Part shown: positions 6,834 through 60,007 of the stretch, piece by piece | Numbering within the stretch: position 1 is the stretch's first letter | Layout: every line of letters starts with the position of its first letter | Assembly: GCF_004010195.1 (NCBI RefSeq) | Contig: NC_057746.1 | Coordinates: forward strand, 34,631,086-34,695,085 | Reading direction: 5' to 3' | Length of the DNA stretch: 64,000 bases | DNA from: Chiloscyllium plagiosum | Taxonomy: Eukaryota | The notes under the pieces: generated by a model | Told to the model about the DNA's origin: nothing | Database searches by the model: none | The model's input: only the letters and a program-made list of their open reading frames with translations | Made by a program: the position numbers and the translations under genes

Positions 6834-7544
6834 NNNNNNNNNNNNNNNNNNNNNNNNNNNNNNNNNNNNNNNNNNNNNNNNNNNNNNNNNNNNNNNNNNN
6901 NNNNNNNNNNNNNNNNNNNNNNNNNNNNNNNNNNNNNNNNNNNNNNNNNNNNNNNNNNNNNNNNNNNNNNNNNNNNNNNNNNNNNNNNNNNNNNNNNNNN
7001 NNNNNNNNNNNNNNNNNNNNNNNNNNNNNNNNNNNNNNNNNNNNNNNNNNNNNNNNNNNNNNNNNNNNNNNNNNNNNNNNNNNNNNNNNNNNNNNNNNNN
7101 NNNNNNNNNNNNNNNNNNNNNNNNNNNNNNNNNNNNNNNNNNNNNNNNNNNNNNNNNNNNNNNNNNNNNNNNNNNNNNNNNNNNNNNNNNNNNNNNNNNN
7201 NNNNNNNNNNNNNNNNNNNNNNNNNNNNNNNNNNNNNNNNNNNNNNNNNNNNNNNNNNNNNNNNNNNNNNNNNNNNNNNNNNNNNNNNNNNNNNNNNNNN
7301 NNNNNNNNNNNNNNNNNNNNNNNNNNNNNNNNNCTGGTCACTGCTGGGGTGAGTAACAATCCTGGTTCTCTCGCTGACTCATAGCCCTGCTACAATTTGC
7401 TGTGAAATCCAAAATCTTCGTTTTTAAATGAACTATGAGATTAAGTGACATTTGATCAATGTGATGAATATCAGATCGCTTTAAAATGTGGTTCCAGTGA
7501 GCTTTCACAGGAAGGGAAAGATATGTGGAGCCTCGACACCCCTG

Positions 7545-8237: not shown

Positions 8238-9868
8238 CTGATGGTGAGTGGAGCCACTGATGTGTGATTGGGGGGTGATGGTTAATGATAATGGGGCTAT
8301 TGATGGCAGTGGTGGGGGTGGTGGGGGGGGGGGAGCCAGTGATGGTTCACATGGCCTTTCAATCCACCTTTGCCCTGGATGAGTTTTATGAGTGTCTGTG
8401 AGAGAATTGACGTGAGACCTGGCTGACTCTAACTATTCCCCCCCCCCCCGCTCCCAACTTCCCTCTCAAATCCCTTCAAACATTTCCAGGACTGCAATCC
8501 ATCCATATCCTGAAACCTGAACTGTCAATTTCACCCTCGGAATACCCGCAGCTTGTTCGAGGGAATATTCACTGCACTCTTCCATCCCCACCCCCCCCNN
8601 NNNNNNNNNNNNNNNNNNNNNNNNNNNNNNNNNNNNNNNNNNNNNNNNNNNNNNNNNNNNNNNNNNNNNNNNNNNNNNNNNNNNNNNNNNNNNNNNNNNN
8701 NNNNNNNNNNNNNNNNNNNNNNNNNNNNNNNNNNNNNNNNNNNNNNNNNNNNNNNNNNNNNNNNNNNNNNNNNNNNNNNNNNNNNNNNNNNNNNNNNNNN
8801 NNNNNNNNNNNNNNNNNNNNNNNNNNNNNNNNNNNNNNNNNNNNNNNNNNNNNNNNNNNNNNNNNNNNNNNNNNNNNNNNNNNNNNNNNNNNNNNNNNNN
8901 NNNNNNNNNNNNNNNNNNNNNNNNNNNNNNNNNNNNNNNNNNNNNNNNNNNNNNNNNNNNNNNNNNNNNNNNNNNNNNNNNNNNNNNNNNNNNNNNNNNN
9001 NNNNNNNNNNNNNNNNNNNNNNNNNNNNNNNNNNNNNNNNNNNNNNNNNNNNNNNNNNNNNNNNNNNNNNNNNNNNNNNNNNNNNNNNNNNNNNNNNNNN
9101 NNNNNNNNNNNNNNNNNNNNNNNNNNNNNNNNNNNNNNNNNNNNNNNNNNNNNNNNNNNNNNNNNNNNNNNNNNNNNNNNNNNNNNNCAGACACACACTC
9201 TCTCACTCTATCACACACACTCTCACTCACACACACGCACACAAACACACTCACTCACTCACAGAGACAGACACTCTCTCTGTCACAGATACACACTCTC
9301 ACACACACACACACTCACATACACACACACTCACATACCCACAGACACACACACACTCTCTCCCTCTCTCTCTCTCTCACTGACTTACACGCTCAGTGGC
9401 GTACACAGTCACAGACAGACCCCACTCTTCAGAACATTGGCAGGATAGTCACAGACAGGATAGTGCCGGGTGTGTATGAGGGGTGGATCAGGAAAGTGGC
9501 AGGGATGAACAGTTCCACAGCTGGGAAAATGAAGGCGGGGGGAAGGAGTGAAAGGGACTGAGCCGGGCTGTGACCAAAACCGGAGGGAAGAATGTCACTC
9601 CTCTGAGTCAGACGTCTTGCATGTGGGTGACCTTTGAGTGAGAAAGGTGCCGAGGATGAATTCTGTTGGTCTCACGTCCCCAATCATCACGGGGAGTTTT
9701 TGTATGTCATCACAGTTAGTCAGAGGGTGACAGAGACCAGGGAGCTGCCGATGACAGACTGAGTTTCAGTCTGATGAACTGAAAGTCCCGGGGTTTAGTA
9801 ACCAGCCCTCTGTCCTACTCTTTCTGGTTACTCAGGGTTAAAGCAGAGGGCTCCTGACTTGCCTGGCC

Positions 9869-10095
9869 ATGAGCTTGCTGTTTGTGAAACAAGCAGACAG
9901 CTTCCTGAGGAGCTGGAAGGGTTCTCTGTCCATGAAGGAAGCTGGTGAAGATCAGAAGGACTGGCACCACGATACCAGGGCCGACCAGGGATTCGACCAC
10001 AAATACTACTGCGGGGCGTGTGAGCACCTGATGAGGGACCCTGTTCAAACAGAGTGCGGCCACCGTTTCTGCCTGGAATGTCACTGGGCCCTCCT
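9869..10095 (+). CDS. TRAF2-like: TRAF2-like coding exon 1 (N-terminus and RING start)
   Basis: gccATG at 9869, acceptor ctcag| at 9835, donor CT|gtaagt at 10096; [25 protein letters not shown]. Confidence 0.9.
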
Positions 10096-13000
10096 GTAAG
10101 TTTCCATTGGGTATACACCGGGCCCTCCTGTAAGTTTCCACTGAGTATACACTGGGGGCGTCCTGTAAGTTTCCACTGAGTATACACTGGGGGCGTCCTG
10201 TAAGTTTCCATTGAGTATACACCGGGACCTCCTGTAAGTTTCCATTGAGTATACACTGGGCCCTCCTGTGTGTTTCCATTGGGTATACACTGGAGCTCTC
10301 CTGTAAGTTTTCATTGGGTATACACCGGGACCTCCTGTAAGTTTCCACTGGGTATACACTGGAGCATTCCTGTAAGTTTCCATTGGGTATACACTGGGCC
10401 CTCCTGTGAGTTTCCATTGGGTATACAATGGGCCCTCCTGTAAGTTTCCATTGAGTATACACCGGGACATCCTGTAAGTTTCCATTGGGTATACATTGGG
10501 GCCCTCCTGTAAGTTTCCATTGGGTATACACTCAAGTCCTCCTGTGAGTTTCCATTGGGTATACACTGGGGCCCTCCTGTAAGTTTCCATTGGGTATACA
10601 CTGGGGGCCTCCTGTAAGTTTCCATTGGGTATACATTGGGTCCCTCCTGTGAGTTTCCATTGGGTATACACTCAAGTCCTCCTGTAAGTTTCCATTGGGT
10701 ATACACTGGGGCCCTCCTGTAAGTTTCCATTGGGTATACACTGGGGGCCTCCTGTAAGTTTCCATTGAATATACACCGGGGCTCTCCTGCGTGTTTCCAT
10801 TGGGTATACACCGGGACCTCCTGTAAGTTTCCATTGGATATACACTCGAGCCCCCCTGTAAGTTTCCATTGGGTATACACTGGGGCCCTCCTGTAAGTTT
10901 CCATTGGGTATACACTGGGGCCCTCCTGTGAGTTTCCATTGGGTATACAATGGGCCCCTCTTGTAAGTTTCCATTGAATACACACTGGGGCCCTCCTGCG
11001 TGTTTCCATTGGGTATACACTGGGGCCCTCCTGTAAGTTTCCATTGGGTATACACCGGGGCCCTCCTGTGTGTTTCCATTGGGTATACACTGGGGCCCGC
11101 CTGTGTGTTTCCATTGGGTATACACTGGGGCCCTCCTGTGAGTTTGATCCTTTTAAACACCTCAGTCGATCCTTCCTCATTCTGCTTCATCAGTAGCACC
11201 ATTGGATTGTGCTGTTGCCCCTGAGCTGATGTGTGGAATACCCCGAGTTTGGAGTTCAGCCTCAGATATAGTCTGCCTTTCCCCGAGGAATTGCTCAGGT
11301 TCTCTACATTGGTCGAAGTAACAGTAATAAGGATTATTATTTAAAGGGTAAGACGTTGCAGCATGCTGCTATGCAGGGGGACCTGGGTGTCCTTGTGCAT
11401 GAATCGCAGGAGCTTGGTCTGCTGGTGCAGCAGGTCATTAGGAAGGCCAATGGAATATTATCCTTCATTGCTAACGGGATTGAGTTTAAAAGCAGGGAGG
11501 TTATGTTGCAGCTGTACACGGTGCTGGTGAGAGTATACGTGGAGCTCTGCGTGCAGTTTTGGTCTCCTTTCTTGAGAAAGGATGTATTGGCACTGGAGGG
11601 GGTGCAGAGGAGGGTCACTCGGTTGATTCCAGAGTTGAGGGGGTTGGTTTATGAGGAGAGACTGAGCAGACTGGGATTATATTGATTGGAATCCAGAAGA
11701 ATGAGAGGGGATCTAACAGAAACATATAAAATTATGAAGGGAATGAATGAGCTAGAAGCAGGGAGAATGTTTCCACTGGCAGGTGAAACTAGAATTAGGG
11801 GGCGCAGTCTCAAAATGAGGGGGAGCAGATTTCGGACAGAGCTGAGGAGGAACTTCATCACCCAGGGGGTTGGGAATCTGTGGGCTCCCCTGCAGTTAAG
11901 GCTACTCCCGTTGAATGTTTTTAAGGTAAAGGTAGATTTTGGGACAAATTAGGGGTTACGGTGAGAGGGCAAGTCAGTGGAGCTCAGCCCATGAGAAGAT
12001 CAGCCATGATCTTATGAAATGGTGGAGCAGGCGCGAGGGGCCGAATGGCCTCCTCCTGCTCCAGGTTCTTACCGTCGCTGGTGGAGATGCTGATCTCCCC
12101 ACACTGCCTGCTCTCTGAGCTGGAGCTCAAATCTCCTGCCGATGGTCGTATGAACAAGTGAGAACCTAGGAGTCTCCCCCTGATTGTCAGTTACCGTTGG
12201 ATCGGGAACCCCATGGCCACTGTGTGCACTTTGATTCCCTCTGCTCTGACAGAGAGGTCAGTGAGACAACAGAACCGTTGTGAGGTTTTCGGACGTTGGG
12301 GGCTTTTAGAAATGCAAATGACTCCCCTTTCTCTGACCAGGCCGGAACATTCTGGGCTGGGTGCTGAGCGGGGAAACCTCCTGTTCACTGTCTCGCCGCC
12401 CCCACCCCGGTCCCCAGGACAGTCACGAGAAAGAGAACACCCCACACAACGTCCCAAGGGTGTTTAGCTCTACCCGGACTCAGTGCCATGGAGCATTGGC
12501 GCAGACAGAGATGTGTTATCCATCAGGACCCAATGCAAGAATGCCAAAGAATCAAGACAATTTGCGCTACAGGGGCAAAGGTCATTGCTTGGTGGGCTCT
12601 GATTGGCTGCGGTGTTGCTGTTGAAGAAGGCAGCTATGGGCTCCTGAGGTTTCTTTTATTGGAATAAATCACAGAAGGCGCAAGGCTTAAGCATGTCCCT
12701 TTTGTTTGCGGTGAACACAGGTCCCTATGTGTCAGTTGTTAGTGAGCCCCATTGCAAGCTGGATGGGTGATCTGAGATAGTGTGTTCTTGCTCCTGCAGG
12801 TTCACCCATCACATACTGCCCCAGCAACAGAACCACCTCTCAGTGTCAGCGATTCATTGGCATTTTGCAAACGTGGGCAGGTTGAGCACCTGTCGAGAGC
12901 AGCTGGATTGGGGAGGGGGGGGGGGGGTGGGAAGAGAGAGGACGTGCTGTGTCAGAATTACTGAAGCATTTTGCCTGGCATCAGATTGGCACTGGATTCC

Positions 13001-16000
13001 GAACACCACCAACACTGCTGTTGGTCTGGCAGGGCATTGTGTAAACAGTGGAGCTGAACAAAGTCCGATCTCAGAGTCAGTGTGATTCCCATCGGAGATT
13101 GGTGAAAGTTGGGGGTGGGAGGGGGTGTAGCAATCATTGCAGCTCTGAAATTCCGATGCTGCAGAAGTGACCTCGATAATAAGGTCCTGTGGGCGATGCC
13201 AATGTGAGGACAGGCGATGGTAAGGACATTCGGTGTTGAATTAACCCCTGAATTAAAACGCTTCCCCCTCCTCCTGCCAACAGGAAAGAATCTATGCCTT
13301 GCCCATCCTGCTTACGAGATAACGGAATGGTTGAGAATGGTTCGTGTGCCACGCTGGAGAAAGTAAGCACGCGTGTTCTGTATGTTCTGTTACATATGTG
13401 TTCTGCTCGAGACATGCCAGCGATTGGCTGAAAATTCTGAAACACCAGCGAGAGGTTATGAGACTGAGGTGGTGGGTTTATACCGAACCCCCTCACTGCT
13501 TAACAATAGGTCCAGATACTTTACATAATCGACAATTTCAAACAAAGATATCGAGAGAAGGCGTTCAGAGTTTATTTTACGCGCCGAGTGAATTGGGCGT
13601 GACTCATTGCATCGGGAACATGCCTCCCATTCCTGCTATACCATTCGATTGGTCCTCAGCTGGTGTGAGTCTGATTGAAACTCCAACCTCCTGTCTACCT
13701 CTGTCTCACAATCTCTCAAATGCACACACACACACACACACACCCCCTCACTCACTCATACACATTGTACACACACACAGTCACACAGAGCCACACATAC
13801 ACACACTCTCTCTCACACACAGTCACACGTACACATATGCACACACACACACTCTCATACACATTGTACACACACACAGTCACACAGAGCCACACATACA
13901 CACACTCTCTCTCACACACAGTCACACGTACACATATGCACACACACACACTCTCATACACATTGTACACACACACAGTCACACAGAGCCACACATACAC
14001 ACACTCTCTCTCACACACAGTCACACGTACACATATGCACACACACACACTCTCATACACATTGTACACACACACAGTCACACAGAGCCACACATACACA
14101 CACTCTCTCTCACACACAGTCACACGTACACATATGCACACACACACACTCTCATACACATTGTACACACACACAGTCACACAGAGCCACACATACACAC
14201 ACTCTCTCTCACACACAGTCACACGTACACATATGCACACACACACACTCTCATACACATTGTACACACACACAGTCACACAGAGCCACACATACACACA
14301 CTCTCTCTCACACACAGTCACACGTACACATATGCACACACACACACTCTCATACACATTGTACACACACACAGTCACACAGAGCCACACATACACACAC
14401 ACACACACACAACCTTTCACAAGAGGAATCGAGGGTTCTGGGGAAAGTGGATGTGAGAAATGTCAGATCAGCTGAGGACAGTAGAGCAGGTTGGAGGGGC
14501 TGACCAGCCTCCTGCTCTTCCTGTTTCCTCTGCTCTTCTGGTGGTGAGATGTCAGACCCAGTCACACAAGCCAGACACTAGTCCCTGGGTATATACTCCC
14601 AGCCGGTCAGGGCTGACGGTATTTTCTGGTCCTTTGCCTGACTGTTGCTTTCTGCCTGTCCTGTTACAGTGTTTCAGGGACAGAGCCATTGCTAAGGAGA
14701 TCCTCAACCTGCAGGTCTACTGTCGCAACGAAGGCTGTGACTGGAGCGGACCACTCCGGGAGCTGGAGGTAAGATCCTACTCCCAGAGCCGTCTCACCGT
14801 GAGGGTCCGGGCTGAGGAGCAGAGCAGAGCAGCGACGGGAGGGAGGTGCCAATGGCAGATACTCACCACATCCTCACCACCCCCCCAAGTCTAACCCTTG
14901 CCCCACCACCCAATGGCCGATAGTGTCGGGCAAGTCTCAGGGGGGCCTAGATCAGAGAGAGGCAAAACGCTGTCTCTTCCAGGGTGTCCGAGTGAGGCGG
15001 GCTGGGCCGCAGGCGCCTTCCTACAGTGAACAGCCCACTGCACGCTGCACCCGCACATCCGAAACCCCCAGCCGGGTAACGGTGGCTGGCCTTCTCTGGG
15101 GCGCAGGCAGGGTGGGGTTGGGGGCGGTGGGGTGTGGAAGTTGGGACTACGCTCTGGTGGCCAAGAGAGATGCCGGGGGTGGGGAGGAAAGGGGGGACTG
15201 GGGATGGGAATGGGTGGATGTTAGGAAGGCCTCAGGCCTCAGTGTCCAGTGAGTGACCCTACCCTCTCCCTCTCCCTCTCCCTCTGTTGGTCTGTTGCCT
15301 TGTCGCAGGGTAAGCATGGGCCGAGCTGTGAGCGCAGGTTGCTGAGATGTCCCTTCAGCTTCGTCGGCTGCAGAGAGATGGTGAGTGATCTCCTGCCCAT
15401 CCCCAGCCTCGCCCCACCCCTCTGTTCCCTCCCTCCCTCCCCCTCCGCTCTTGCCCCCTCCCCATCCCACCCCGGTCTGCTCCCCCAGCCCGGTGTCACT
15501 GATGCTATGAGACTGTTGGTGTCCCGGGCGCTATCTAAACGTAGACCGCTGCCAAAGGGAAGGATTCGGGGGGGTGGGGGGTGGGGACATGGTGGTGGGG
15601 TTGTGGCAGGGGGGTGTCAGATGCCCGGAATGCCGTCCTCTCTGTCTCAGGGTGGGGATTGGCACCAGGACTCCCAGCAGGTGTTTCCAGCCTGATGTTG
15701 GGGAGCGTTGGGTGGGGTGCGGTTCTTCACCCAGAGAGTGGTGGCTGTGTGGAATGCTCTGCCCCAGAGGGCAGTGGAGGCCCAGTCTCTGGATACTTTC
15801 AAGAAAGAGTTGGATAGAGCTCTTAGAGATAGTGAAATCAAGGGTTATGGGGATAAGGCAGGGACAGGATACTGATTGAAGATGACCACCCATGATCATA
15901 ATGAATGGTTGTGCTGGCTCAAAGGGCCGAATGGCCTACCCCTGCACCTATATTGTGTGACCGCAAGCGGGTCTTGGATTCTAACCCCTCCGAGAGGAAG

Positions 16001-17688
16001 GGACGCTGCCCCGCGTCCCAGGAGCTGGTGCTGCCTGGCGGAGGTGGAAGTGGAATATGGAACAGTCAGGAACAGTCAGGCTCCCTTCCCAGGACAGGCC
16101 CCAGGCTCCTCACCTCTCCCCAGCCTTTAACTCCAGGCCTGGTCGGGCTGGGCCAGGCCTGGGGGTGGGTTACGGGTGCTCCCACATCCCTGGGCTGATC
16201 CAGCTGCTGATGTGTGTGCCTTTCCCAGGTTTCAGGGGCTGACCTGCACCAACACAAGCTGAGCTGTATTCAGCAGCACCTGGACTACATGCTTGAGGCC
16301 TTTCGGCAGGGCCTGGCGAAACAGGCCCCAGGATCAGGAGCCAGCCTGGCTCTGCCGGAGGGGGTCCTGGGCGACAGTGACGGTGAGGAACTGCCGAGGG
16401 ACACAGAGGAACAGCATGATCTGAGGGTGAGGGTGCAGACCTTTGAAAACATCGTGACCGTGCTGAATCGGGAAGTGGCAAACACGTCTAATACTCTGAT
16501 GGCCCAGGAGAGGAAGCTGAAGGAACAGGAGACAGTGACCACACAGCTCAGAAACAAGGTGGGTATTTCACAACAGCCTCTGTGTGTCTGTGTGTGTCGG
16601 TGCCTCGGTGCGTGTCTGTGTTTGCCTGTGTGTGCATGTGTGCGTGTTCGCGCATGTCTGTCTGTGCATGTGTTTCTGTGCATGTGTTTCTGTGTGTGTG
16701 TGTATGCATCTGTGTGTGTCTGCCTGTCTGTGTGTTTGTGCATGTGTTTCTCTATGTGTGTATCTGTGTCTTTGTATGTGTGCCTGTCTGTGTTTTGCCT
16801 GTGTGTCGCCTGTCTGTGTGTGTCTGTGCATGTGTGTCTGTTGCCTGTATCTGTGTGTGCATCTGACTGTATGTCTGTGTCTGTGTTGCCTGTGTGTGTT
16901 TGACCTTATCAAACAGGGACAGGGGGAGGCCATTCAGCCCCTCCAGCCTGCTCCACCATTCAAGTGTGTGTGTGTGTGTGAGAGAAAGTGTCTATGTTTG
17001 TGAGTGTGTGTGTCTGTGTGAGTGTGAGTGTGTGTGGGGGGGGGAGAGTGTGCGAGTGTGAGAGAGAGAGTATGTCTGTCTGTGTGTGCGTGTGAGTGTG
17101 TGCTGGGTAGAGAGTGTGTGTGTGTGTGTNNNNNNNNNNNNNNNNNNNNNNNNNNNNNNNNNNNNNNNNNNNNNNNNNNNNNNATATCTGTTTAATGCCA
17201 GGAGACAGAGTGTTGGTAGGTGGGGTGTCTGTGTGTGTTTTATTTTCTGTGTAAGTCTGTTTAATAGTAGCTGATAGGGTGGTGGTGCAGGGTTGTGTGT
17301 GTTTTTCTGTATATATCTGCTTAATGACAGGAGACAGACTGGTGGTGGTGGTGGAGGGTTGTGTGCGTGTGTGTTTCTGTGCATATTCGATTAATTGCAG
17401 GAAACAGGGCTGTGGTGGAGGGTTGTGCGTGTGTTTCTGTGTATATCTGTTTAATGGCAGGAGGCAGAGTGGTCGTGGAGGGTTGTGTGTGTGTGTTTCT
17501 GTGTATATCTGTTTTCGGGCTGGAGACAGAGTGGTTGTGGAGGGTTATACGTGTGTGGTTCTGTGTATATTTGATTAACGGCAGGAAACAGAGTGGTGGT
17601 CGGGGGATGTGTGTGTTGGTTTCTGTGTCCATCTGTTTAATGTCAGGAGGCAGGATGGGAGTGAGTGTGTGTGTGTGTGTGTGTTTCT

Positions 17689-28700: not shown

Positions 28701-31700
28701 GGCACAGAGATCTCAGACTACTGGAAAGCTTAAAGACAACTGCAGAGCTGGAGAGAGAATGATTGGAATACAAGGGGCTGCCGGCGGGGGGGGGGGGAAG
28801 AAAGAGGAGGAAGCTTTAAGCTTGGGGCATTGCTGAACAACGGAGGTTTACAAACACTGCAGCGACAGGGACTTGTTGTCGGTTTGAGCTGTTGATGGGT
28901 TTAGGGCACTCCCCTTTCGGCAGAGCAAACTACCAGGCTGGCCCACACGTGACTCCAGACCCACAGCCACGGAGTTGGCCCCCCGAGCTGGAGATTTATT
29001 AGGAACGGGCAACAACAAATGCCGGCCAAGCCCAGGATGCCGACATCTCAGAACCAGGCAAACGATTGGGTTGGAGCTAATCCACCCAGAGGCTGGGATC
29101 TGCACGGAAACCAAATGCTGGGGATGACGGTGGGCCAGGCAGTATCCACGGAGAGAGAGCTAGCTAACGTCCTAGCTAGGATGACTCCTAGCTGGGTCTT
29201 GCAATGCCTCTCACTCGTGCCTCGTGCCTATTTTCCTCATTAAAACAGGAAGCTGTCTTGTTGCTGGATGTGTAGGAGTTGAACAAGGGAACAGATTTGG
29301 GGGGTTGCTCACTTGGAGAATGGGAACACCAGCCACAGCCATGCTGACTGGAAAACAGATCTCTGCTCCTTCAATGATGCTGTGCCAGGAATACCCTTCC
29401 AGACGGTGCTGTGGGGGGGGTCCCCACACCCCAAAGCCTGCAGCCATTTGATGAGGAGACTCAGCATTACCTTCTCAAGGGACAGCCAGTACACGCTGTC
29501 CCAGCCAACAACGCACACGCTCCCCACAAACCAATGATTAAAATAAAACCCACCAACTGACAGTTCAGCTCAAAGTCCAGCCGGTGATGGAGTTGCTGAT
29601 ATCGGAATACCGTTAAGGTGGAAGGGAGCAGAGGGAAGCCAGGAACCAGCAGTTACCTGCCGCATCTTCATCGACCCGAGCAGGTCTCCAGGAGTGAGGC
29701 CTTCCCTGTTGAGCACATCCATAGCCGCTGGGCAAGACTTCCTGAGGGGGACAACCAGATCCTCATAGACTGGAGAGAAGCAGAGTGGCCACAGTTAGAC
29801 ACCAAAGCTCCTCACTGCCTGGCTCAGACATCAACACATGGCTCACAGGGCAACATCTGCTTCCAGCTCATAGAACAGTCAAAGGCAGGCTGCAGGGGAA
29901 ACAGGCGGCTATCCAAATGTACCTGATAAGGTCAGGGCAGAGGGAGCTTTACTCTGTATCTGACCCCATACTGTCCCAGTCCTGGGAGTGCTTGATTGAG
30001 GGGCTGGGGGGGGGGGGGGGTGGAAACAGTGTAGAAAATAGAAGATCAGAGAGCATTCCAGCGCAGTACAGGCCCTTCAGCCCTCGATGTTGCACCAACC
30101 TGTGGAACTGATCTGAAGCCCGTCTAACCTACACTATTCCATTCTCATCCATATGTTTATCCAATGACCATTCAAATGTCCTTAAAGTTGTCAAGTCTAC
30201 TACTGTTGCAGGCAGGCCATTCCACGCCCCTCCTACTCTCTGAGTCAAGAAACTAATCTCTGACATCTGTCCTATATCTATCACCCCTCAATTTAAAGCT
30301 ATGTCCCCTCGTGCTAGCCATCACCATCCAAGGAAATCTCAATTAAGTCACCTCTCAACCTTCTTCTCTCTAACAAAAGCAGCCTCAAGTCCCTCAGCCT
30401 TTCCTTGTAAGACCTCCTCTCCATACCAGGCAACATCCCAGGAAATCTCCTCGACATCCTTTCCAAAGCTTCCACATCCTTCCTACAAAGCAGTGACCAG
30501 AACCGTCCGCAATGCTCCAAGTGCGGCAGCACCAGAGTTTTCTACAGCTGCAGCATGACCTTGTGGCTCTGAAACTCAATCCCTCAGCCAATAAAAGCTA
30601 ACACACTGTACGCCTTCTTAACAACCTTATCAATCTGGGTGGCAACTTTTAGGGATCTATATACATGGATACCGAGATCTCTCTGTTCATGGCCACTACC
30701 AAGAATCTTACCATTAGCCCAGTACTCTGCATTCCTGTTACTCCTTCCAGAGTGAATCACCTCACAATTTTCTGCATTAAACTCCATTTGCCACCTCTCA
30801 GCCCAGCTCTGCAGCTTATCTATGTCCCTCTGTAACCTACAACATCCTTTGGCACTATCCACAGCTCTATCAACCTGAGTGTCATCTGCAAATTTACTAA
30901 CCCACCCTTCTATGCCCTCATTCAGGTGGCCCCTTGCAGTACATCACTAGTAACTGTGCTCCAGGATGAATATTTCCCATCAGCCACCACTCCCTGTCTT
31001 CTTTCAGCCAGACAATTTCTGATCCAAACCGCTAAATCCCCCACAATCCCCCATGCCTCCGTATATTGTGCAATAGCCTATCGTGGGGAACCTTATCAAA
31101 CACCTTACTGAAATCCATATACACCACATCAACCGCTTTACCCTCATCCACCTGTTTGGTCACCATCTCAAAGAGCTCAATAAGGCATGACCTACCCTTC
31201 ACAAAACCGTGCTGACTATCCCTAATCAACTTATTCCTTTCTAGATGATTATAAATCCTGTCTTTTCTAACCTTTACCAACACTTTACTGACAACTGAAG
31301 TAAGGCTCACTGGCCTATAATTACCGGGGTTGTCTCTACTCCCCTTCTTGAACAAGGGGACAACATTTGCTATCCTCCAGTCTTCTGGCACTATTCTTGT
31401 CGACAACGATGACATCAAGATCAAAGCCAAAGGCTCTGCAATCTCCGCTTTGACTTCCCAGAGAATCCTCAGATAAATCCCATCTGGCCCAGGAGACTTA
31501 CCTATTCTCACACTTTCCAGAATTGCTAACACCTTCTCCTTCTGAACGTCAATCCTGTCTAGCATAGTAGCTTGTATCTCAGTATTCTCCTCAACAACAT
31601 TGTCGTTTTCCAGTGTGAATACCGACAAAAAACATTCATTTAGCACTTCCCCTATCTCCTCTGACTCCACACACAACTGCCTACTACTGGCCTTGATTGG

Positions 31701-33290
31701 CCCCAATCTTACTCTAGTCATTCTTTTATTCCTGATATACCTATCGAAGGCCTTAGGGTTGTCCTTGAGCTTATCCGCCAACGACATCTCATGTCCTCTC
31801 CTGGTTCTTCTTCGCCCTCTCTTTAGGTTTTTCCAGGCTAACATAACTCTCATGTGCCCTAACTGAGCCTTCACATCTCATCCTCACATAAGCCTCTTCC
31901 TTCCTTGTGTAGAGGCAGCTTTACTCTGTATCTAACATTGTGCTATCCCGGTCCTGGGAGTGTTGATGGGGGGGGGTTGCAGTGTAGAGGGCAAGGATGG
32001 AGTGTTAGCCTGCCTGTTTGGGGGTGTCCTGTCCTGGGAGTGTTGATGGGGGAGGGGGGAGACAGTGTAGAGGCAGTGTTCCCTCCCCGTGTACAGAGGG
32101 AGTGTTAGCCTGCCTGTTTGGGAGTGTCCCTGTCCTGGGAGTGTTGATGGGGAGGGGGGAAACAGTGTAGAGGCAGTTTTCCCTCCCTGTGTACAGAGAG
32201 AGTGTTAGCCTGCCTGTTTGGGGGTGTCCCTGTCCTGGGAGTGTTGATGAGGAGAGGGGAGGGAGTTTTTCCTCCCCATGTACAGAGGGAGGGTTAGCCT
32301 GCCTGTTTGGGGGTGTCCCTGTCCTGGGAGTGTTGATGAGGAGAGGGGAGGGAGTTTTTCCTCCCCATTGGGAGTGTTGATGAGGAGGGGGGGGGAAACA
32401 GTGTAGAGGCAGTTTTCCCTCCCCGTGTAAGGATGGAGTGTTAGCCTGCCTGTTTGGGGGTGTCCCTGTCCTGGGAGTGTTGATGGCGGGGGACAGTGTA
32501 GAGGGAGTTTTAGCCTGCCTGTTTGGGGGTGCCCCTGTCCTGGGAGTGTTGTTCTGGAGGAGGGAGGGGGGAGAGACAGTGTAGAGGAAGTTTTCCCTCC
32601 CCGTGTACAGGGTAAGGATGGAGTGTTAGCCTGCCTGTTTGGGGGTGTCCCTGTCCTGGGAGTGTTGATGAGGAGAGGGGAGGGAGACAACATAGAGGGA
32701 GTTTTTCCTCCCCATGTACAGAGGGAGGGTTAGCCTGCCTGTTTGGGGGTGTCCCTGTCCTGGGAGTGTTGATGAGGAGAGGGGAGGGAGACAGCACAGA
32801 GGGAGTTTTTCCTCCCCATGTACAGAGGGAGGGTTAGTCTGCCTGTTTGGGGGTGTCTCTGTCCTGGGAGTGTTGATGAGGGGGGTGGCGGGGAAGACAG
32901 CGTAGAGGGAGTTTTCCCTCCCCGTGTACAGAGGGAGTGTTAGCCTGCTGTTTGATGGGTGTCCCTGGCCTGATGGTGATCTCCCCTGCTGAGCTGTGTG
33001 AGCAGAGGTTGCTCCTTACCTCTGGTTCCTCTCTTCACTGCCTGGCGGGCAGCAAGGTGCAGTGGGGTATTGCCCCTGTGGTCCTGGAGTAGGGGGTCTG
33101 CTCCGTGTTGCAGGAGCAGCCTGGTGATAGCGTCGTCTCTCTGGGAGCAGGCCACATGGAGTGGGCTTCGGCCCTTCCGTCCCCTGAACGTCACTGACAG
33201 CCCGTGGTGTCTGCGCAGGTAGGACTTCACCTTCAGCACATTGCCATCCTCCACATAGCGCAGTAACCTCTCCTGCTTCCGAGAAACCAT
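25240..33290 (-). CDS. NFKBIL1: NF-kappa-B inhibitor-like protein 1, 4 coding exons, 347 aa
   Basis: Exons 33290-33020, 29769-29657, 28274-28154, 25778-25240. GT-AG, phases 1/0/1, total 1044 nt. Ankyrin repeats (SPLHVAC, GNTPLHLAA), CPAAMDVLNREGLTPGDLL, WADRLAREY, DIPWP and QQVMWHPDRF are NFKBIL1 signatures. Confidence 0.93.
26168..26445 (-). mobile_element. HE1-type SINE
   Basis: Head ggcggcatggtggctcagtggttagcacggctgcctcac on -, same body as the other copies. Confidence 0.85.
27595..28085. mobile_element. SINE fragment with 53 bp repeats joined to a CR1/HER1 3' end
   Basis: About 3.5 copies of the 53-mer, then acacagagggtggtacgtgtatggaatgagctgcc CR1 tail. Confidence 0.8.
28154..28274 (-). 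CDS. NFKBIL1: NFKBIL1 coding exon 3
   Basis: tcacag|CAA...GAAG|gtgagg; DREWYQKLSAECEAEFYTQCGRYE. Confidence 0.88.
29657..29769 (-). CDS. NFKBIL1: NFKBIL1 coding exon 2
   Basis: ctccag|TC...CAG|gtaact; YEDLVVPLRKSCPAAMDVLNREGLTPGDLL. Confidence 0.9.
30050..31905 (-). mobile_element. CR1/HER1-like LINE, degenerate reverse transcriptase, in the NFKBIL1 intron
   Basis: KSPGPDGI, WRIANVVPLFKKG, NYRPVSLTS, QHGFVKGRSCL, VDVVYMDFSKVFDKVPH, WQMEFN; frameshifts and deletions. Confidence 0.93.
31907..32965 (+). repeat. Degenerate ~100 bp tandem repeat
   Basis: gttagcctgcctgtttgggggtgtccctgtcctgggagtgttgatg recurs about 10 times; related monomer at 29940-30035. Confidence 0.9.
33020..33290 (-). CDS. 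NFKBIL1: NFKBIL1 coding exon 1 (ankyrin repeats)
   Basis: gccATGG start; upstream acceptor (branch-like cactgac, pyrimidine tract, ccag|) with exon starting at 33312; donor G|gtaagg. Confidence 0.92.
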
Positions 33291-34237
33291 GGCAATGGCA
33301 GCGACGATGACCCTGGCCAGTACCACAAACAAAAAGGTCAGTGAGGCTCCTCATGGACTATCCCAGACAGCGGGAACAATCAGCAACGGGATCCGGGCAT
33401 ACCCGGACACAGCACACCGACAAAACTCCCAGACAGCTTCCTCGCTACGGGAGAGGCACCGATCCCCCGGGATCACCAATCCTTTTATTCCCTGATCTCT
33501 ACAATATCCAGAAACCTCTCGATTTGTCTCTGGAACATACAGGTATTTCTTCCAGAACGCGACAGATGCGTTGCTGTCCAACTCCGCACTATACAAAAGT
33601 TACGCATTACGAATACACTAAAAGACTTGGTGATGTAAGTGCGTTACAGCCAACACACACTTTAAAAGTTCACGCTTTAGAAACAGCATTCCCTCTTCAC
33701 CTGATGGCGTAACCCGCATTAACAAAAGACCCGTTACAGCAGAACTACCTGTACTGCAAGACTGACCATTCACTGCCTTCTCTGCTGGAGAGGACTTCAG
33801 ACTGAGATGAAGAGGAATTTCTTCTGTCTGAGGATGGAGAGTCTCACTGCCACAGAGGGCTGAGGGGACAGAGTCCTGAAGGCTGAGATCGAGAGATTCC
33901 TGATCAGTCAGAGAAACCGAAGGAACGGGCAAGGAAGGAGGCAGGAGGAATGTCGAATCAGCTCCGATCCCATTCAGTGACTGAATGGCCTGCTGCTCTT
34001 CCTGTGTCTTACGGTTAAAATCCCAAGGATTCATCTGCCTCCCAGTGAACAAGGACCGGGAATAGCTGCCCATTTGAAGATAGGAATGGGAGGAATTTCT
34101 TCTCTCTCTGAAGGGAGTGAATTTGTGGGAATCCCTACAGCAGATGACTGTTGGGGTATTGACTATATTCAAGGCAGAGATAGAGAGAAAGAGACTCCAC
34201 AGCCACAACAATGAGGTTGACTCTCTTAACTGTCATG

Positions 34238-34385
34238 GAGGAGAAAGTGAGGACTGCAGATGCTGGAGATCAGAGCTGAAAATGTGTTGCTGGAAAAGCG
34301 CAGCAGGTCAGGCAGCATCCAAGGAGCAGGAGAATTTTCAGGAATTCCTGAAGAAGGGATTATGCCCGAAACGTCGATTCTCCTG
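34238..34385. mobile_element. Short Penelope-terminal-derived insertion with 16 bp target site duplication
   Basis: tctcttaactgtcatg at 34222-34237 and 34386-34401. Confidence 0.85.
34342..34380 (+). ncRNA. Minimal type I hammerhead ribozyme motif (Penelope-derived)
   Basis: gaattc-CTGAAGA-a-GGGattatgCCC-GAAA-CGTC-gattc; GUC cleavage triplet. Confidence 0.6.
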
Positions 34386-34409
34386 TCTCTTAACTGTCAT
34401 GCCTAGATG

Positions 34410-35414
34410 AGGGGTTCAGGGGTAACTGGAAGTGGGTCATGTCTGGGTGAGTGGGGGTTAAGGGGTAAGAGGAAGTGGGCCATGTCTGGCAGAGGAAGGG
34501 TAACCAAAAGTGGGTCATGTCTGGGTGAGGGGGGTAACGAAAAGTGGGTCATGTCTGGGTGAGGAAGTAACAGGAAGTGGGTCATGTCCGGGTGAGGGGG
34601 GTAACCGGAAGTGGGTCATGTCCGGGTGAGGGGGTAACCGGAAGTGGGTCATGTCTGGGTGAGGGGGTAACCGGAAGTGAGTCATGTCCGGGTGAGGGTA
34701 ACCGGAAGTGGGTCATGTCCGGGTGAGGGGAGTAACCAGAAGTGAGTCATGTCCGGGTGAGGGTAACCGGAAGTGGGTCATGTCCGGGTGAGGGGAGTAA
34801 CCAGAAGTGAGTCATGTCCGGGTGAGGGTAACCGGAAGTGGGTCATGTCCGGGTGAGGGGAGTAACCAGAAGTGAGTCATGTCCGGGTGAGGGTAACCGG
34901 AAGTGGGTCATGTCCGGGTGAGGGGAGTAACCAGAAGTGAGTCATGTCCGGGTGAGGGTAACCGGAAGTGGGTCATGTCCGGGTGAGGGGAGTAACCAGA
35001 AGTGAGTCATGTCCGGGTGAGGGTAACCGGAAGTGGGTCATGTCCGGGTGAGGGGAGTAACCAGAAGTGAGTCATGTCCGGGTGAGGGTAACCGGAAGTG
35101 GGTCATGTCCGGGTGAGGGGAGTAACCAGAAGTGAGTCATGTCCGGGTGAGGGTAACCGGAAGTGGGTCATGTCCGGGTGAGGGGAGTAACCAGAAGTGA
35201 GTCATGTCCGGGTGAGGGTAACCGGAAGTGGGTCATGTCCGGGTGAGGGGAGTAACCAGAAGTGAGTCATGTCCGGGTGAGGGTAACCGGAAGTGGGTCA
35301 TGTCCGGGTGAGGGGAGTAACCAGAAGTGAGTCATGTCCGGGTGAGGGTAACCGGAAGTGGGTCATGTCCGGGTGAGGGGAGTAACCAGAAGTGAGTCAT
35401 GTCCGGGTGAGGGT
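34410..35414 (+). repeat. Minisatellite of 31/34 bp units forming a 65 bp dimer, rich in ETS and AP-1 motifs
   Basis: ACCGGAAGTG at exact 65 bp period from 34701 to 35351; TGAGTCA in alternate units. Confidence 0.97.
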
Positions 35415-35865
35415 AGCGTGGGGCGGGGAATCGACGACGGGCGGCTCCGGTATGTGTTTGTGTGTGGGGTGGGAGGGGGGGTGGGAGAGAAGGGGGCGCG
35501 CGGTGCCTGACGGTAAATGTAGTCGTGATGTGACGTACATGGCGGCGGCGGCTGCTGCTACGGCGCGGTGTCCGACGGTAAATGCAGTCGTGAGGTGATC
35601 CCCCGGACGTGACGTACGGCCGACGGTAAATGTAGTCCGAGCGGGTGGGTGGCCGGCCGGAAGTGACGGCGGTTGCGAGTCCGCAAGCCGCCGTGCGCAG
35701 GCGCGGTGCCATCACATCTCTCCCTCCCCCCCATTCCAGGGAAGCAGGGCCACGTTTGATAGTGTCTGTCCTCCTCCACATCAACCCAAATCCCACACAC
35801 GGCCTGCCGACTCCCGGGACACAGGTCAGACACCTCTCCGCGCCGCCGCTGCCGCCGCCCTGATT
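35415..35865. promoter_or_regulatory. CpG island, probable bidirectional NFKBIL1/CSNK2B promoter
   Basis: Densest non-repeat CpG stretch between the two divergent genes. Three GACTRCATTTACC motifs on - (35512, 35577, 35625; ACTACAnnTCCC-like), GTGACGTAC x2, YY1-like ACATGGCGGC, ETS-CRE CCGGAAGTGACG at 35657, candidate + donor acag|gtcaga at 35824. Confidence 0.75.
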
Positions 35866-37610
35866 GGTCTGGTTTGTTACAGTCTGGTATTACGGTGGCT
35901 GTACCTTCCCCTCCCCCCTCCATTTGGATGCTGACCTCCTTCCCAACATCAGCACTGTCTCTCGCTCACTGTGCTGTGTGTGTGTGTCTCTCTCTCTCTC
36001 TCTCCCTTTCCGGGGGGAGAGGGATGGATGGGGGTTACACAGGTGGTGGGAGGAGGAAGGGGAGGTCCTCTCCACACCAGCCCAGGTTGGGGTTTGGAGG
36101 GTGGGTTGAGTCAGAGCAAACAGAAAAGCAAAACAGAGTCGTTTGCAATGTCTCTGGCTTTAAAATCTCTGCCTGGATTTAGTGGGCTGGCTCTCTCCGT
36201 TGCAGAAACGTAGATTAGTGGCAGTGCAGTCTTGTGTGTGCACTTAGGTTTTTAGAAATCGGTTTATTTGGTAAGGCTTAGCTGACTTGGTTTCCGTTTG
36301 ATTGCTGTAAGCTGCCAGGATCGTTTGTCGTTGTCTTTTTTTTTAGTTTATGGTGTTGCTGCTTATGTTTAGCTCCTGAACACCAGCAGAGGTTGTTGGA
36401 AAAGCTCAGCAGGTATGGCAGCACCTGTAGAGAGAAAGTAGAGTTAACATTTTGGGTCTAGTGACCCTTCCTTAGACAGATGATGGTGAGGTAGGATCAC
36501 TTGACCTGAAATAGTAACTGATTTCTCTCCACTGATGCTGAACCTTTCCAGCAATTTGATTCTGATTTACAGCATTTGCAGTTCTTTTGGTTTTAACTCA
36601 TGTAAGCTTTTGTGTTGTGTATGCTATGTTAGATGAGACCCAAAGTAATGTTTTGCTGTTGGTAGTTGGGCTATTCCTAGATATTATTGTTTTGACATGT
36701 ACAACATGCTTTTGATGTTAAATGCTCTATGCATTCGGGTCCATGCATAACATACTGAAAGGCTTTCTGTTATTTGTATGAAAAATGACCATAATGGTAA
36801 TTTTCCTGGGATTAGGAGGTGTGAGATGCTGGTCTTATTTGAGGTCGCGCCATCTCCAAGATGGCAAACTGAGCAATGCAAATTCTGAAGGAAGTCAGTC
36901 ATCAGTGTCAGAATTAGTAACGCAATGTACAAACAAGGTAAGTGGTGGAAAACTTCAGGAACTCTTCCGGATTGATTATCCAGCTCAAGGCAATGCAAAT
37001 GTGAACCTATGATTGCGTGAAAGAGAGGGCTCTGAACATCACCCAGATACATTCTTGCTGCTGTATCTATCAGTCTACAGTATTGCGAAGGTGTTTGCTC
37101 CCACCTAATTAAACTCAGCAGTGTATACCTCGTGTATACTGAAGCTGTACTGAGAATGTGCAGTTGTCAGGAAAACCTTGTTTTTGAGTGAGTTTTGCAG
37201 CATGCTTTTACAACGGTTAGATATAACTTCCACAACAAATTTTCTTCATATGATAGCTTTTCCAACAGCATTACAAGAATTAAGAGTAGGAGGAGGCCAC
37301 TTGACTCCTAGAGCCTGCTCTGCCATGGATCATGGTTGATTAGATTGTGGCCTGAGCTCGACTTTCTGGCATCCCAGAAACCTTGATTGTCTAACCCCAT
37401 CTTAAATATGTTCATTGATCCCATTTCGGCTGCTTGTTGGGCCAGAGGATCCCTGAAGTTGACAGTCAGAAGAATTTCTCCTCATCTTCTGAAAATGGAG
37501 AGTCTTCATTTTAAAATCATGCCCTTTTGCTGTAAATTTCCTGACAAGAGGAAACATGCATTCAGCATCCACTCTCTCAGCCCCCTCCGGATCATTGTGT
37601 GTTTCAATAA

Positions 37611-45097: not shown

Positions 45098-45374
45098 TTG
45101 GTGAGTTTCTGCAGGGTACCTTGTAGATGGTACACACTGCTGTTACTGAGCATCGGGGGGTGGAGGGAGGGGATGTTTGGTGAGTTTCTGCAGGATATCT
45201 TGTAGATGGTACACACTGCTGTTACTGAGCATCGGAGGGTGGAGGGAGAGGATGTTTGGTGAGTTTCTGCAGGGTATCTTGTAGATGGTACACACTGCTG
45301 TTACTGAGTGTCGGGGGTGGAGGGAGGGGATGTTTGGTGAGTTTCTGCAGGGTACCTTGTAGATGGTACACACT
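45098..45374 (-). repeat. ~79 bp tandem amplification of a LINE 3' segment (3.5 copies)
   Basis: ttggtgagtttctgcagggtaccttgtagatggtacacactgctgttactgag repeats. Confidence 0.9.
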
Positions 45375-46296
45375 CGTGGTGCCCAATGAGGTCACGGTGC
45401 CCTGTCATCCCTGACAGTTGGTGAGGTCGTGGTGCCCAATGAGGTCACGGTGCCCTGTCATCCCTGACAGTTGGTGAGGTCGTGGTGCCCAATGAGGTCA
45501 CGGTGCCCTGTCATCCCTGACAGTTGGTGAGGTCGTGGTGCCCAATGAGGTCACGGTGCCCTGTCATCCCTGACAGTTGGTGAGGTCGTGGTGCCCAGTG
45601 AGGTCACAGTGCCCTGTCATCCCTGACAGTTGGTGAGGTCGTGGTGCCCAATGAGGTCACGGTGCCCTGTCATCCCTGACAGTTGGTGAGGTCGTGGTGC
45701 CCAATGAGGTCACGGTGCCCTGTCATCCCTGACAGTTGGTGAGGTCGTGGTGCCCAATGAGGTCACGGTGCCCTGTCATCCCTGACAGTTGGTGAGGTCG
45801 TGGTGCCCAATGAGGTCACGGTGCCCTGTCATCCCTGACAGTTGGTGAGGTCGTGGTGCCCAATGAGGTCACGGTGCCCTGTCATCCCTGACAGTTGGTG
45901 AGGTCGTGGTGCCCAGTGAGGTCACAGTGCCCTGTCATCCCTGACAGTTGGTGAGGTCGTGGTGCCCAATGAGGTCACGGTGCCCTGTCATCCCTGACAG
46001 TTGGTGAGGTCGTGGTGCCCAATGAGGTCACGGTGCCCTGTCATCCCTGACAGTTGGTGAGGTCGTGGTGCCCAATGAGGTCACGGTGCCCTGTCATCCC
46101 TGACAGTTGGTGAGGTCGTGGTGCCCAGTGAGGTCACAGTGCCCTGTCATCCCTGACAGTTGGTGAGGTCGTGGTGCCCAGTGAGGTCACAGTGCCCTGT
46201 CATCCCTGACAGTTGGTGAGGTCGTGGTGCCCAGTGAGGTCACAGTGCCCTGTCGTCCCTGACAGTTGGTGAGGTCGTGGTGCCCAGTGAGGTCAC
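45375..46296 (+). repeat. 53 bp minisatellite, about 17 near-identical copies
   Basis: cgtggtgcccaatgaggtcacggtgccctgtcatccctgacagttggtgaggt. Confidence 0.97.
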
Positions 46297-58708: not shown

Positions 58709-59935
58709 CCTCTAAAAGATCATCCCTCTGTCTCCTACACTCCAGGGGAAAAATGTCCAGCCTCTCCTTATAATTCAAAACCTTCCAGTCCAAGTAGCAT
58801 CCTAGTAAATCTTTCCTGCACTCTTTCTGGTTTAATAATAACGTTTCTATAGGAGGGTGACCAGAGTTGCATGCTGTGTTTCCAATATGGCCTCACCCAT
58901 GTCTTGTACATCTGCAACATGACCTTCCACCTCCTGTACTCAGTGCTGTGACTGATGAAAGCAAGCATTCAGAAAGCAGCCTTGACCGCTCTGCCTACCC
59001 GTGGCTCCGTTTACAAGGAGCTGTGAACCTGTACTCTGAGATCTCCTCTTTGTTCGCTAACACTCCCCAGGGCCCTATCACTGACCAAAATGCAGCTGAC
59101 CTAAATTAATCTCCATCTGCTGTTCCTCGGCCCACTGGGGAGTGCGTACATCTTGCATTGGTGAGTTGAGGCAGGGTGATGGTGTGTTGTTGCCTTAATT
59201 ACTCTGTCAAGGCACTGCTCCAGTTGCTGACTGTGGATTGCTATTCCACTCAGACTGAAAGCTCGGCTGGATGAGTTGCTGTGCACCAGGGAGCTGTGCT
59301 GCAATCTATCTGCAGTATTCCCAGGAGACGGGTTGCAGTAAGGGTTAGCCTGTACATGCTGTCAGCTGCTCCTCAGATCCCTGAGAAAATGAGACTGTGA
59401 GTGTCTGTGTCTGTGTGTACATGCGTGCAAGTGAATGGGAGCGGGGGTTGGACGTACCAATTCAGTGTACAGAGTGATGCCTCAAGACACAAGGAGGGCA
59501 AAGAGGGATGCAGTTTGATGTGGAGGTGCCAGTGTTGGGCGGGGGTGGACAAAAGTTTAAAAATCACACAATGGCAGGTGACAGTCCAAAAGATTTCTTT
59601 AGAACTGCAAGCTTTCAGAACACCATTCCATCGTCAGGCAGAGCTAGCTCCCTGAGGCAGGAGCAGCACTCCAAATAAACCTGTTGGACTATAGCCTGGC
59701 GTTGTGGGCTGCAGTTTGCTCAGGGCTAGTGCTGAGTTTGAGTGGGAACTTCAGGCCCTGTGAAGTTGGGCAATTAGGGGCAGGCTGTAATCATTGGGGG
59801 GGGGGTGGCACAGGAGGTGCCACAAGGCGTTTGGTTTACCTGATCACTTGCTCACTCCCCCTCCCTCGCTCTCTGTTCCCCCACCTTCCTCCTCCTGCTT
59901 TTCTCGCCCCCCGCCCCCTTTCAGAGGATACGAAG

Positions 59936-60007
59936 ATGAGCAGCTCGGAGGAAGTATCATGGATCTCCTGGTTCTGCGGACTGCGAGGCAATGAGTTCTT
60001 CTGTGAG
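59936..60007 (+). CDS. CSNK2B: Casein kinase II beta subunit, first coding exon
   Basis: tttcag| then 11 nt of UTR, ATG; [24 protein letters not shown], donor |gtgggt. Confidence 0.97.

Follow-up and report, generated by a model that had tools for sequence, protein, structure and literature searches.

The 64,000-nucleotide stretch of Chiloscyllium plagiosum DNA examined here (the window; all positions count from its first letter) carries a minisatellite at the bidirectional promoter of NFKBIL1 and CSNK2B. Our leading reading is that the true array is an old, ETS-bearing minisatellite of perhaps a dozen units and that the perfect ETS/AP-1 block seen in the window is an assembly fill, a reading to which we assign roughly even chances. 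A real lineage-specific deletion and expansion, counted over all its forms, is a weighty alternative that we would place a little under even, and the small remainder belongs to other histories. The earlier note on this DNA had proposed an amplified, alternating ETS/AP-1 enhancer, and that proposal has fared poorly: unit B is unmatched exactly in the covering records of independent sequencing runs, and in one of them (X1) the junction with the CpG island differs by about 450 letters.

Architecture of the array

When 34380-35440 is split at the unit start, 30 monomers of 31-43 bp run head to tail over 34422-35415, and TRF reports a period of 65 with 97% matches, as befits a minisatellite. Its parts, with the repeat fragment beside it, are as follows.

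34240..34385, no strand assigned: interspersed-repeat fragment directly left of the array (self-BLAST matches at 967, 5184, 39650, 41126, 50835, 55823 and others)
34422..34666, + strand: old, decayed monomers 1-7 (33-43 bp), with ETS intact in 2/7, AP-1 in 0/7 and a CpG o/e of 0.40
34667..34697, + strand: monomer 8, in which ETS and AP-1 sites overlap, one G>A away from the ancestral monomer
34698..35415, + strand: 11 identical A+B dimers and the opening 3 letters of a 12th, the suspect block

Monomers 9-30 make up the 11 identical A+B dimers, of 34+31 bp each. The error-free run (34674-35415) is 742 bp long, or 11.4 copies, and the perfect block breaks off 3 letters inside a unit; monomers 8 and 30 have 27 letters in common. 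As a description of the window, the earlier note was accurate in several respects: a 65-bp dimer that alternates an ETS unit (A) with an AP-1 unit (B), one unit that holds both sites (monomer 8, 34667-34697), and an array that is perfect on the island side (monomers 9-30) and decayed away from it (monomers 1-7). Its tally of 14 ETS sites (ACCGGAAGTG) and 12 AP-1 sites (TGAGTCA) likewise agrees with our recount inside 34410-35414.

The array unit has no second copy elsewhere in the window, and a dispersed repeat family is disfavoured by low depth in run X1. A coding role for the array or the island was also set aside, as the two ORFs across both are without a Pfam match, against matches for 3 of the 5 proteins scanned. 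Rfam gave 0 matches within the window, and the strict G-quadruplex pattern gave 0 matches as against 14 for a relaxed pattern with loops up to 12. On the + (CSNK2B) strand, each monomer across 34422-35415 contains a site resembling a splice donor (7 of 9), with a second one in B; these sites would be relevant only to RNA that begins within the array or to its left.

Other tandem repeats are found in the window. A TRAF2/3/5-type RING exon at 10001-10096 (Pfam TRAF3_RING, 4e-07; PDB TRAF2/TRAF3) runs into a 35-bp minisatellite at 10082-11145, most of whose ~30 units repeat the end of the RING exon with a GTAAGT or GTGAGT donor-like site. At 13755-14400 lies an error-free array of 99 bp x 6.5 in CA-rich microsatellite sequence, which is either very young or another assembly fill. 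The array of 53 bp x 17.4 in CSNK2B intron 1 (45374-46296) begins abruptly within a 79-bp tandem, and 754 bp of it follow a higher-order period of 318 bp perfectly.

The rest of the window, both strands included, holds 1 ACCGGAAGTG and 13 TGAGTCA. With a panel of 30 motifs, ETS and AP-1 appeared together in 0/50,000 shuffles of the dimer and in 0/19,039 random 65-mers of the window, and 0/11 other repeat units of the window, taken at approximate places, hold either site. At least three motifs of the panel occur in 4% of shuffles and in 7% of window 65-mers; the dimer has three (ETS, AP-1 and RORE), the "broken AP-1" site of unit A being also a RORE-type nuclear-receptor site. The ETS/AP-1 combination exceeds chance as a named pair, yet it has one founder. 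The 26 sites are copies of one dimer, and thus n = 1; the alternation consists of two point changes copied in one block, and is therefore one event.

Comparison of the monomers suggests an order of changes in which an ETS-only monomer gained AP-1 by a G>A (monomer 8), a CG>CA then destroyed the ETS site (B), and the dimer was repeated; monomer 8 is likely the founder of unit B. ETS binding is sensitive to CpG methylation, and only 4 of monomers 1-10 retain the CpG of the ETS site. The CpG o/e of the old monomers lies near that of the window (0.32). Their excess of CpG transitions gives p 0.01-0.11 when all events are counted, and falls short of significance when only distinct changes are (p 0.09-0.27). 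The loss of CpG hints that these monomers were once methylated. Composite ETS/AP-1 spacing, within 20 bp, is found in the window sequence only, as the overlap in monomer 8 and as the 18 bp from AP-1 (B) to the next ETS (A).

First exons and CpG island of NFKBIL1 and CSNK2B

The two genes and the elements between them were placed from protein matches, motif scans and the contigs of public runs.

33021..33312, - strand: NFKBIL1 exon 2, the first coding exon, with ATG at 33290 and acceptor AG at 33314-33313 (Pfam ankyrin; P0020; edge at the loose end of X4 record 20)
33313..35415, - strand: NFKBIL1 intron 1, a 5' UTR intron that contains the array (X4 record 20; donor absent from the expected place in the window)
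35416..35449, no strand assigned: piece common to the first exon of CSNK2B (+), whose donor follows 35449, and that of NFKBIL1 (-) (X4 record 20, with a loose end at either side)
35450..35900, no strand assigned: CpG island at the start of CSNK2B intron 1 and upstream of NFKBIL1 (consensus matches)
35712..35824, + strand: candidate alternative CSNK2B first exon, a weak hint from organism C (X18 record 12)
59925..60007, + strand: CSNK2B exon 2, with ATG at 59936, 24.5 kb downstream (PDB casein kinase II beta, E 6e-12)

NFKBIL1 and CSNK2B, which the earlier note had named as the two genes, are correctly identified by the P0020 identity, the casein kinase II beta match and a contig of run X4. The minus-strand exon matches P0020, a protein named Chiloscyllium plagiosum NFKBIL1, at 100% over 90 aa; identity with P0020 extends over residues 1-90 and 169-347, and the first coding exon is 94% identical to that of Hemiscyllium ocellatum. 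A literature search, covering main texts only, found no publication on this locus or repeat, and NFKBIL is not mentioned in the accessible portion of the main text of PMC10751288.

The X4 contig (record 20, 2029 letters) joins the edge of NFKBIL1 exon 2 (33312) to 6 letters, then to 35416-35449, and then to CSNK2B exon 2, whose opening 30 letters (59925) come directly after 35449. The 6 letters, which belong to NFKBIL1 exon 1 and lie left of 35416, are absent from that place in the window. The lengths of the two arms fit both full mRNAs (1185 against 1072 plus UTR, and 810 against 659 plus UTR). Since both second exons are spliced to 35416-35449 in X4, this run is of RNA type, which places the array inside intron 1 of NFKBIL1 and ahead of exon 1 of CSNK2B. 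We read CSNK2B exon 1 as ending at 35449 and NFKBIL1 exon 1 as ending 6 letters left of 35416. A single unstranded contig over two genes is not a single transcript and gives no start site; as judged from this contig, the genes would stand head to head, their first exons overlapping within the ~40 letters between the donors. Head-to-head starts less than 1 kb apart, the mark of a bidirectional promoter, would follow from this one contig of one run (X4). Within the array, the best donor-like sites on the NFKBIL1 strand score 5-6 of 9. The window version has 30 upstream ATGs on the same strand.

Counted from where the array ends, the island (35416-35900, 485 bp) has a GC content of 0.65 and a CpG o/e of 1.02, against 0.32 for the window. 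GC boxes were found by motif scan at 35421 and 35439, and further predicted motifs are an ETS-CRE at 35657, NRF1 at 35695, a YY1-like site at 35539, CCAAT at 35863, CRE half sites and three imperfect ZNF143-like copies at 35512, 35577 and 35625. The predicted sites thus include the motif set of CpG-island bidirectional promoters (GABPA, NRF1, YY1, NFY and ZNF143). The three ZNF143-like copies, a 12-letter element within 35510-35640 followed in two cases by CRE half sites, look like a small internal duplication. Record 12 of X18 (depth 203), on which the candidate alternative CSNK2B first exon is based, opens with adapter letters near 35712, and a splice at 35824 followed by 30 letters would account for its length.

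A second CpG-rich patch lies in NFKBIL1 intron 1 beside exon 2 (33330-33760; o/e 0.87, GC 0.48) and could be an alternative promoter; visual inspection picked out two ZNF143-like words in it, near 33358 and 33421. We set it aside as a separate NFKBIL1 promoter because splicing in X4 proceeds from the island side, although the patch may hold an additional start. NFKBIL1 intron 2 contains a broken LINE-type reverse transcriptase (Pfam RVT_1; 30584-31877, - strand).

Independent sequencing runs and the origin of the perfect block

Four of 24 matching public runs (X1, X4, X13 and X18; organisms A, B and C) were aligned as contigs on 35348-36350, which spans the last dimer and the island, the last dimer being the part of the array that is covered. 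Contigs drop rare variants, and summed contig depth does not equal copy number. None of the 24 listed runs is from the window's own animal: the best shares 0.64 of window words, the figure predicted by 1.45% divergence. X1 differs from the window at 14/965 letters (1.45%), plus indels; X1 and X4 are from one organism, 1.45% diverged, and X1 may represent another population or species. X13 (organism B), an RNA-type run, has 0 differences in 150 letters at 36094-36243; none of the RNA-type runs is catalogued as RNA. Places without cover (35450-36350 in X4; 35416-35449 in X13 and X18) were not counted as evidence.

The junction of array and island takes another form in X1, a whole-genome-sized run, whose record 1 passes from an exact A monomer through 483 other letters to 35416-35962. 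The corresponding place in the window is short.

35384..35415, no strand assigned: 32 window letters where X1 has 483 others (X1 record 1)

These 483 letters may include further decayed monomers. The abutment of array and island described in the earlier note therefore holds in the window and fails in X1, in which the 483 letters lie between them. The junction of monomers 1 and 2 is present in X1 too, at a loose end, and the order of monomers in X1 differs from that in the window, old part included. Depth in X1 is 38-48 on the repeat against 6.0-6.6 on unique DNA, and by a crude estimate the X1 array has roughly a dozen monomers. Array contigs in X4 have depths of 85-1683 (one at 4.9) against 376 for the spliced two-gene contig.

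Words of the ETS-bearing A type occur in 4/4 runs from three organisms, and A-type and decayed monomers are seen in X1, X4, X13 and X18. The A-type words of X18 (organism C) have 1-2 differences in 27-33 letters, and the nearby island is visibly diverged. The B place (35382-35412), by contrast with the A-type words, is matched exactly by no covering record in X1, X4 or X13, and in X18 0/4 records reach it. Differences there number 3, 4 and 4 in X4 (3/3 spanning records, all 7 aligned records being listed), 3 and 6 in X13 (2/2 spanning records, 3/3 records listed), and 3, 3, 6 and 7 in X1 among the 6 of 31 records listed. The covering records explain the reported bin depth (38.6 against 38.1, 1048.1 against 1048.1, and 28.0 against 28.0). 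Replacing the dimer by an A+A pair changes exactly 3 positions, and on the simplest reading the 3-difference records would be A+A pairs, two of the three letters being unlisted. In the related sharks checked, an ETS-bearing repeat stands by the promoter in three organisms, and the alternating block was not seen.

These observations would be best explained if the perfect block were an assembly fill attached to an old array. An old G-rich 33-34-bp minisatellite, with one class-I ETS site per monomer, lies in NFKBIL1 intron 1, upstream of the CSNK2B first exon, and probably grew by slippage or unequal exchange from promoter-edge DNA with an existing ETS site; such an origin would mean that the ETS site was inherited without selection. 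The true array would be short and set apart from the exon by 483 letters, as in X1. Looping extension is a gap-closure error mechanism, and the near-identical monomers 8 and 10 may have let extension loop, with the loop replacing a missing GC-rich stretch. The source animal would have to carry one or two real AP-1 monomers as seed; B has its own substitution, which implies that at least one real B exists. Any influence on the two genes would presumably amount to that of a few clustered ETS sites next to a housekeeping CpG island with sites that already suffice.

Several findings are consistent with such a fill. The block stands in place of unique sequence found in independent data (483 letters in X1 and 6 exon letters in X4, from a 1.45% diverged organism), and because the 6 exon letters of X4 are missing from the window, the window version has lost a used NFKBIL1 exon end. 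The window block and the X1 stretch are of the same order of length (682 letters against 483). The window has four N runs (3586-4202, 617; 6834-7333, 500; 8599-9187, 589; 17130-17183, 54), and the 99 bp x 6.5 array is a second error-free array within it. According to the accessible portion of 10.1101/602136, a published Chiloscyllium plagiosum assembly, which may not be the window's own, was built from 100-bp reads with Platanus, KGF and GapCloser; with reads of that length a 742-bp perfect repeat could not be counted. Gap closers can overfill, as the part of 10.1101/2021.02.26.432990 at hand shows for long-read tools. Against a fill stand the absence of N at the array/exon junction and of an overlap that accounts for the join, the 1.45% divergence of X1, given which the structural difference may be real, the appearance of the closer organism B in an RNA-type run only, and the other window arrays (35- and 46-bp units), which are heterogeneous and look real. 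That the perfect copies are artefacts, a possibility by which the earlier note would have withdrawn its own inference, is now the leading reading, at roughly even odds.

If the block is real, it may be a true allele or species state in which ~480 bp beside the shared exon were deleted and A+B recently expanded, with the motifs as neutral passengers, a possibility that we hold only tentatively. The CG>CA that is B's own is a typical methyl-CpG change, the window has many other minisatellites, and the junction is without N; X1, at 1.45% divergence, has a different monomer order, also among the old monomers. Minisatellites are commonly polarised, one end being young and homogeneous. Such a deletion would, however, take away the last part of NFKBIL1 exon 1 together with the DNA that immediately precedes CSNK2B exon 1, and X13, with 0/150 differences nearby, has array words of which none is exactly B.

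Compatible with either origin, though rather doubtful in our judgement, is the idea that the older ETS-only array has a function of its own, as a cluster of ETS sites close to the promoter or as a place where alternative transcripts begin, and that it has been preserved among related sharks. The A-type words in 4/4 runs and 3 organisms, differing in X18 by only 1-2 letters per 27-33, agree with this idea, but the near-identity fits homogenisation too. Array words are also present in the RNA-type run X4, for which contig depth is a poor measure, whereas RNA of intron 1 would contain the array anyway. The few intact ETS CpGs (4 of monomers 1-10) and the old-part o/e of 0.40 likewise weigh against a working array. 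A modest contribution of the ETS-only array, via bidirectional activity or the setting of start sites, is possible.

It is unlikely that a real block serves CSNK2B and/or NFKBIL1 as an ETS/AP-1 enhancer tuned by copy number and sensitive to methylation, or as a replacement promoter. Each motif fits its consensus perfectly, and chance would rarely produce the pair; the distance from AP-1 to the next ETS is 18 bp, inside the 20-bp rule of PMC4231772, in which a RAS/ERK-responsive reporter is driven by three ETS/AP-1 copies. GABP sites are able to support transcription in both directions (PMC2077898) and can fix start sites (10.64898/2026.05.04.722487), as the available sections of these sources describe. 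However, a single founder dimer shows no repeated selection, monomers 1-7 lack AP-1, none was observed in the 4 runs, and sites of the ETS-CRE, NRF1, YY1-like, CCAAT and GC-box types are already present in the island. It seems similarly improbable that in a true allele the promoter DNA and the end of NFKBIL1 exon 1 were replaced by an 11-fold minisatellite that is now the CSNK2B upstream promoter, making the pair RAS/ERK-responsive by copy number, with NFKBIL1 on another first exon or donor. That a long array would be a repressed motif cluster of the MORC3-closed kind rather than an active enhancer is most improbable: tandem repeats densely packed with SPI, AP-1 or SP/KLF motifs stay closed, with only ~50 of ~1000 human clusters of more than 15 SPI motifs accessible even without MORC3 (PMC13373173, in its accessible portion), and the array bears signs of past CpG decay, but the long block must then be real and the site is an active housekeeping promoter.

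Should assembly fill prove to be the origin of the block, error-free arrays by GC-rich promoters in draft shark genomes can be mistaken for regulatory arrays of deliberate design and can conceal a genuine exon end, as here for NFKBIL1. A real block would instead offer a testable instance in which promoter DNA of a housekeeping pair has given way to a tandem repeat. The modest by-products are solid, namely the head-to-head arrangement of NFKBIL1 and CSNK2B in these sharks, with first exons that appear to overlap, and the ETS minisatellite at their promoter in three organisms.

Comparison with known systems

Our findings fit into a broader set of repeat and promoter elements, which we compare here on the basis of those portions of the cited sources that were available. 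Repeats with one ETS-family site per unit and copy-number-dependent binding are already known (PMC11701250, PMC13373173). The human MAD1L1 VNTR bound by PU.1 (PMC11701250) is likewise a minisatellite in or beside a gene with an ETS-family core in each unit, and in both arrays additional units could bind more factor; for the MAD1L1 VNTR, length variation, binding and a reporter dose effect have been measured. Unlike the PU.1 motif of MAD1L1, the shark site is of class I (GABP/ELK type) and contains a CpG. The MORC3-repressed element of IFNB1 (PMC13373173) is similarly a tandem repeat with dense ETS-family motifs, and repeats with AP-1 clusters are listed in the same source. That element, however, is a distal enhancer with 45 PU.1 sites that is repressed at rest, whereas the shark array is promoter-proximal with at most 14 predicted ETS sites.

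At the level of single sites, monomer 8 resembles the ETS1 composite site (PMC4231772) in layout, with the AP-1 core in the opposite orientation, and the shark dimers satisfy the 20-bp spacing rule of the RAS-response element from that source. An overlap similar to the ETS-CRE overlap of PMC4555227 is predicted in the shark island at 35657. The elements of these two sources are single ones or synthetic 3x reporters, whereas the alternating array of the window, if it exists, would be a natural 11x one.

The filling of gaps offers a further parallel. As in overfilled gap closure (10.1101/2021.02.26.432990), the shark block is error-free, cut mid-unit, in place of sequence found in another run, and near N gaps; in contrast, the shark junction is without N or overlap, and the accessible portion of that source does not describe this loop. 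The surroundings of the array also have precedents. Bidirectional CpG-island promoters with GABPA, NRF1, NFY, YY1 and ZNF143 (PMC3082894, PMC2077898) have the same motif set and a head-to-head pair, and genes that overlap at their 5' ends are known (PMC11890862, PMC8076222), as the shark first exons appear to do on one unstranded contig.
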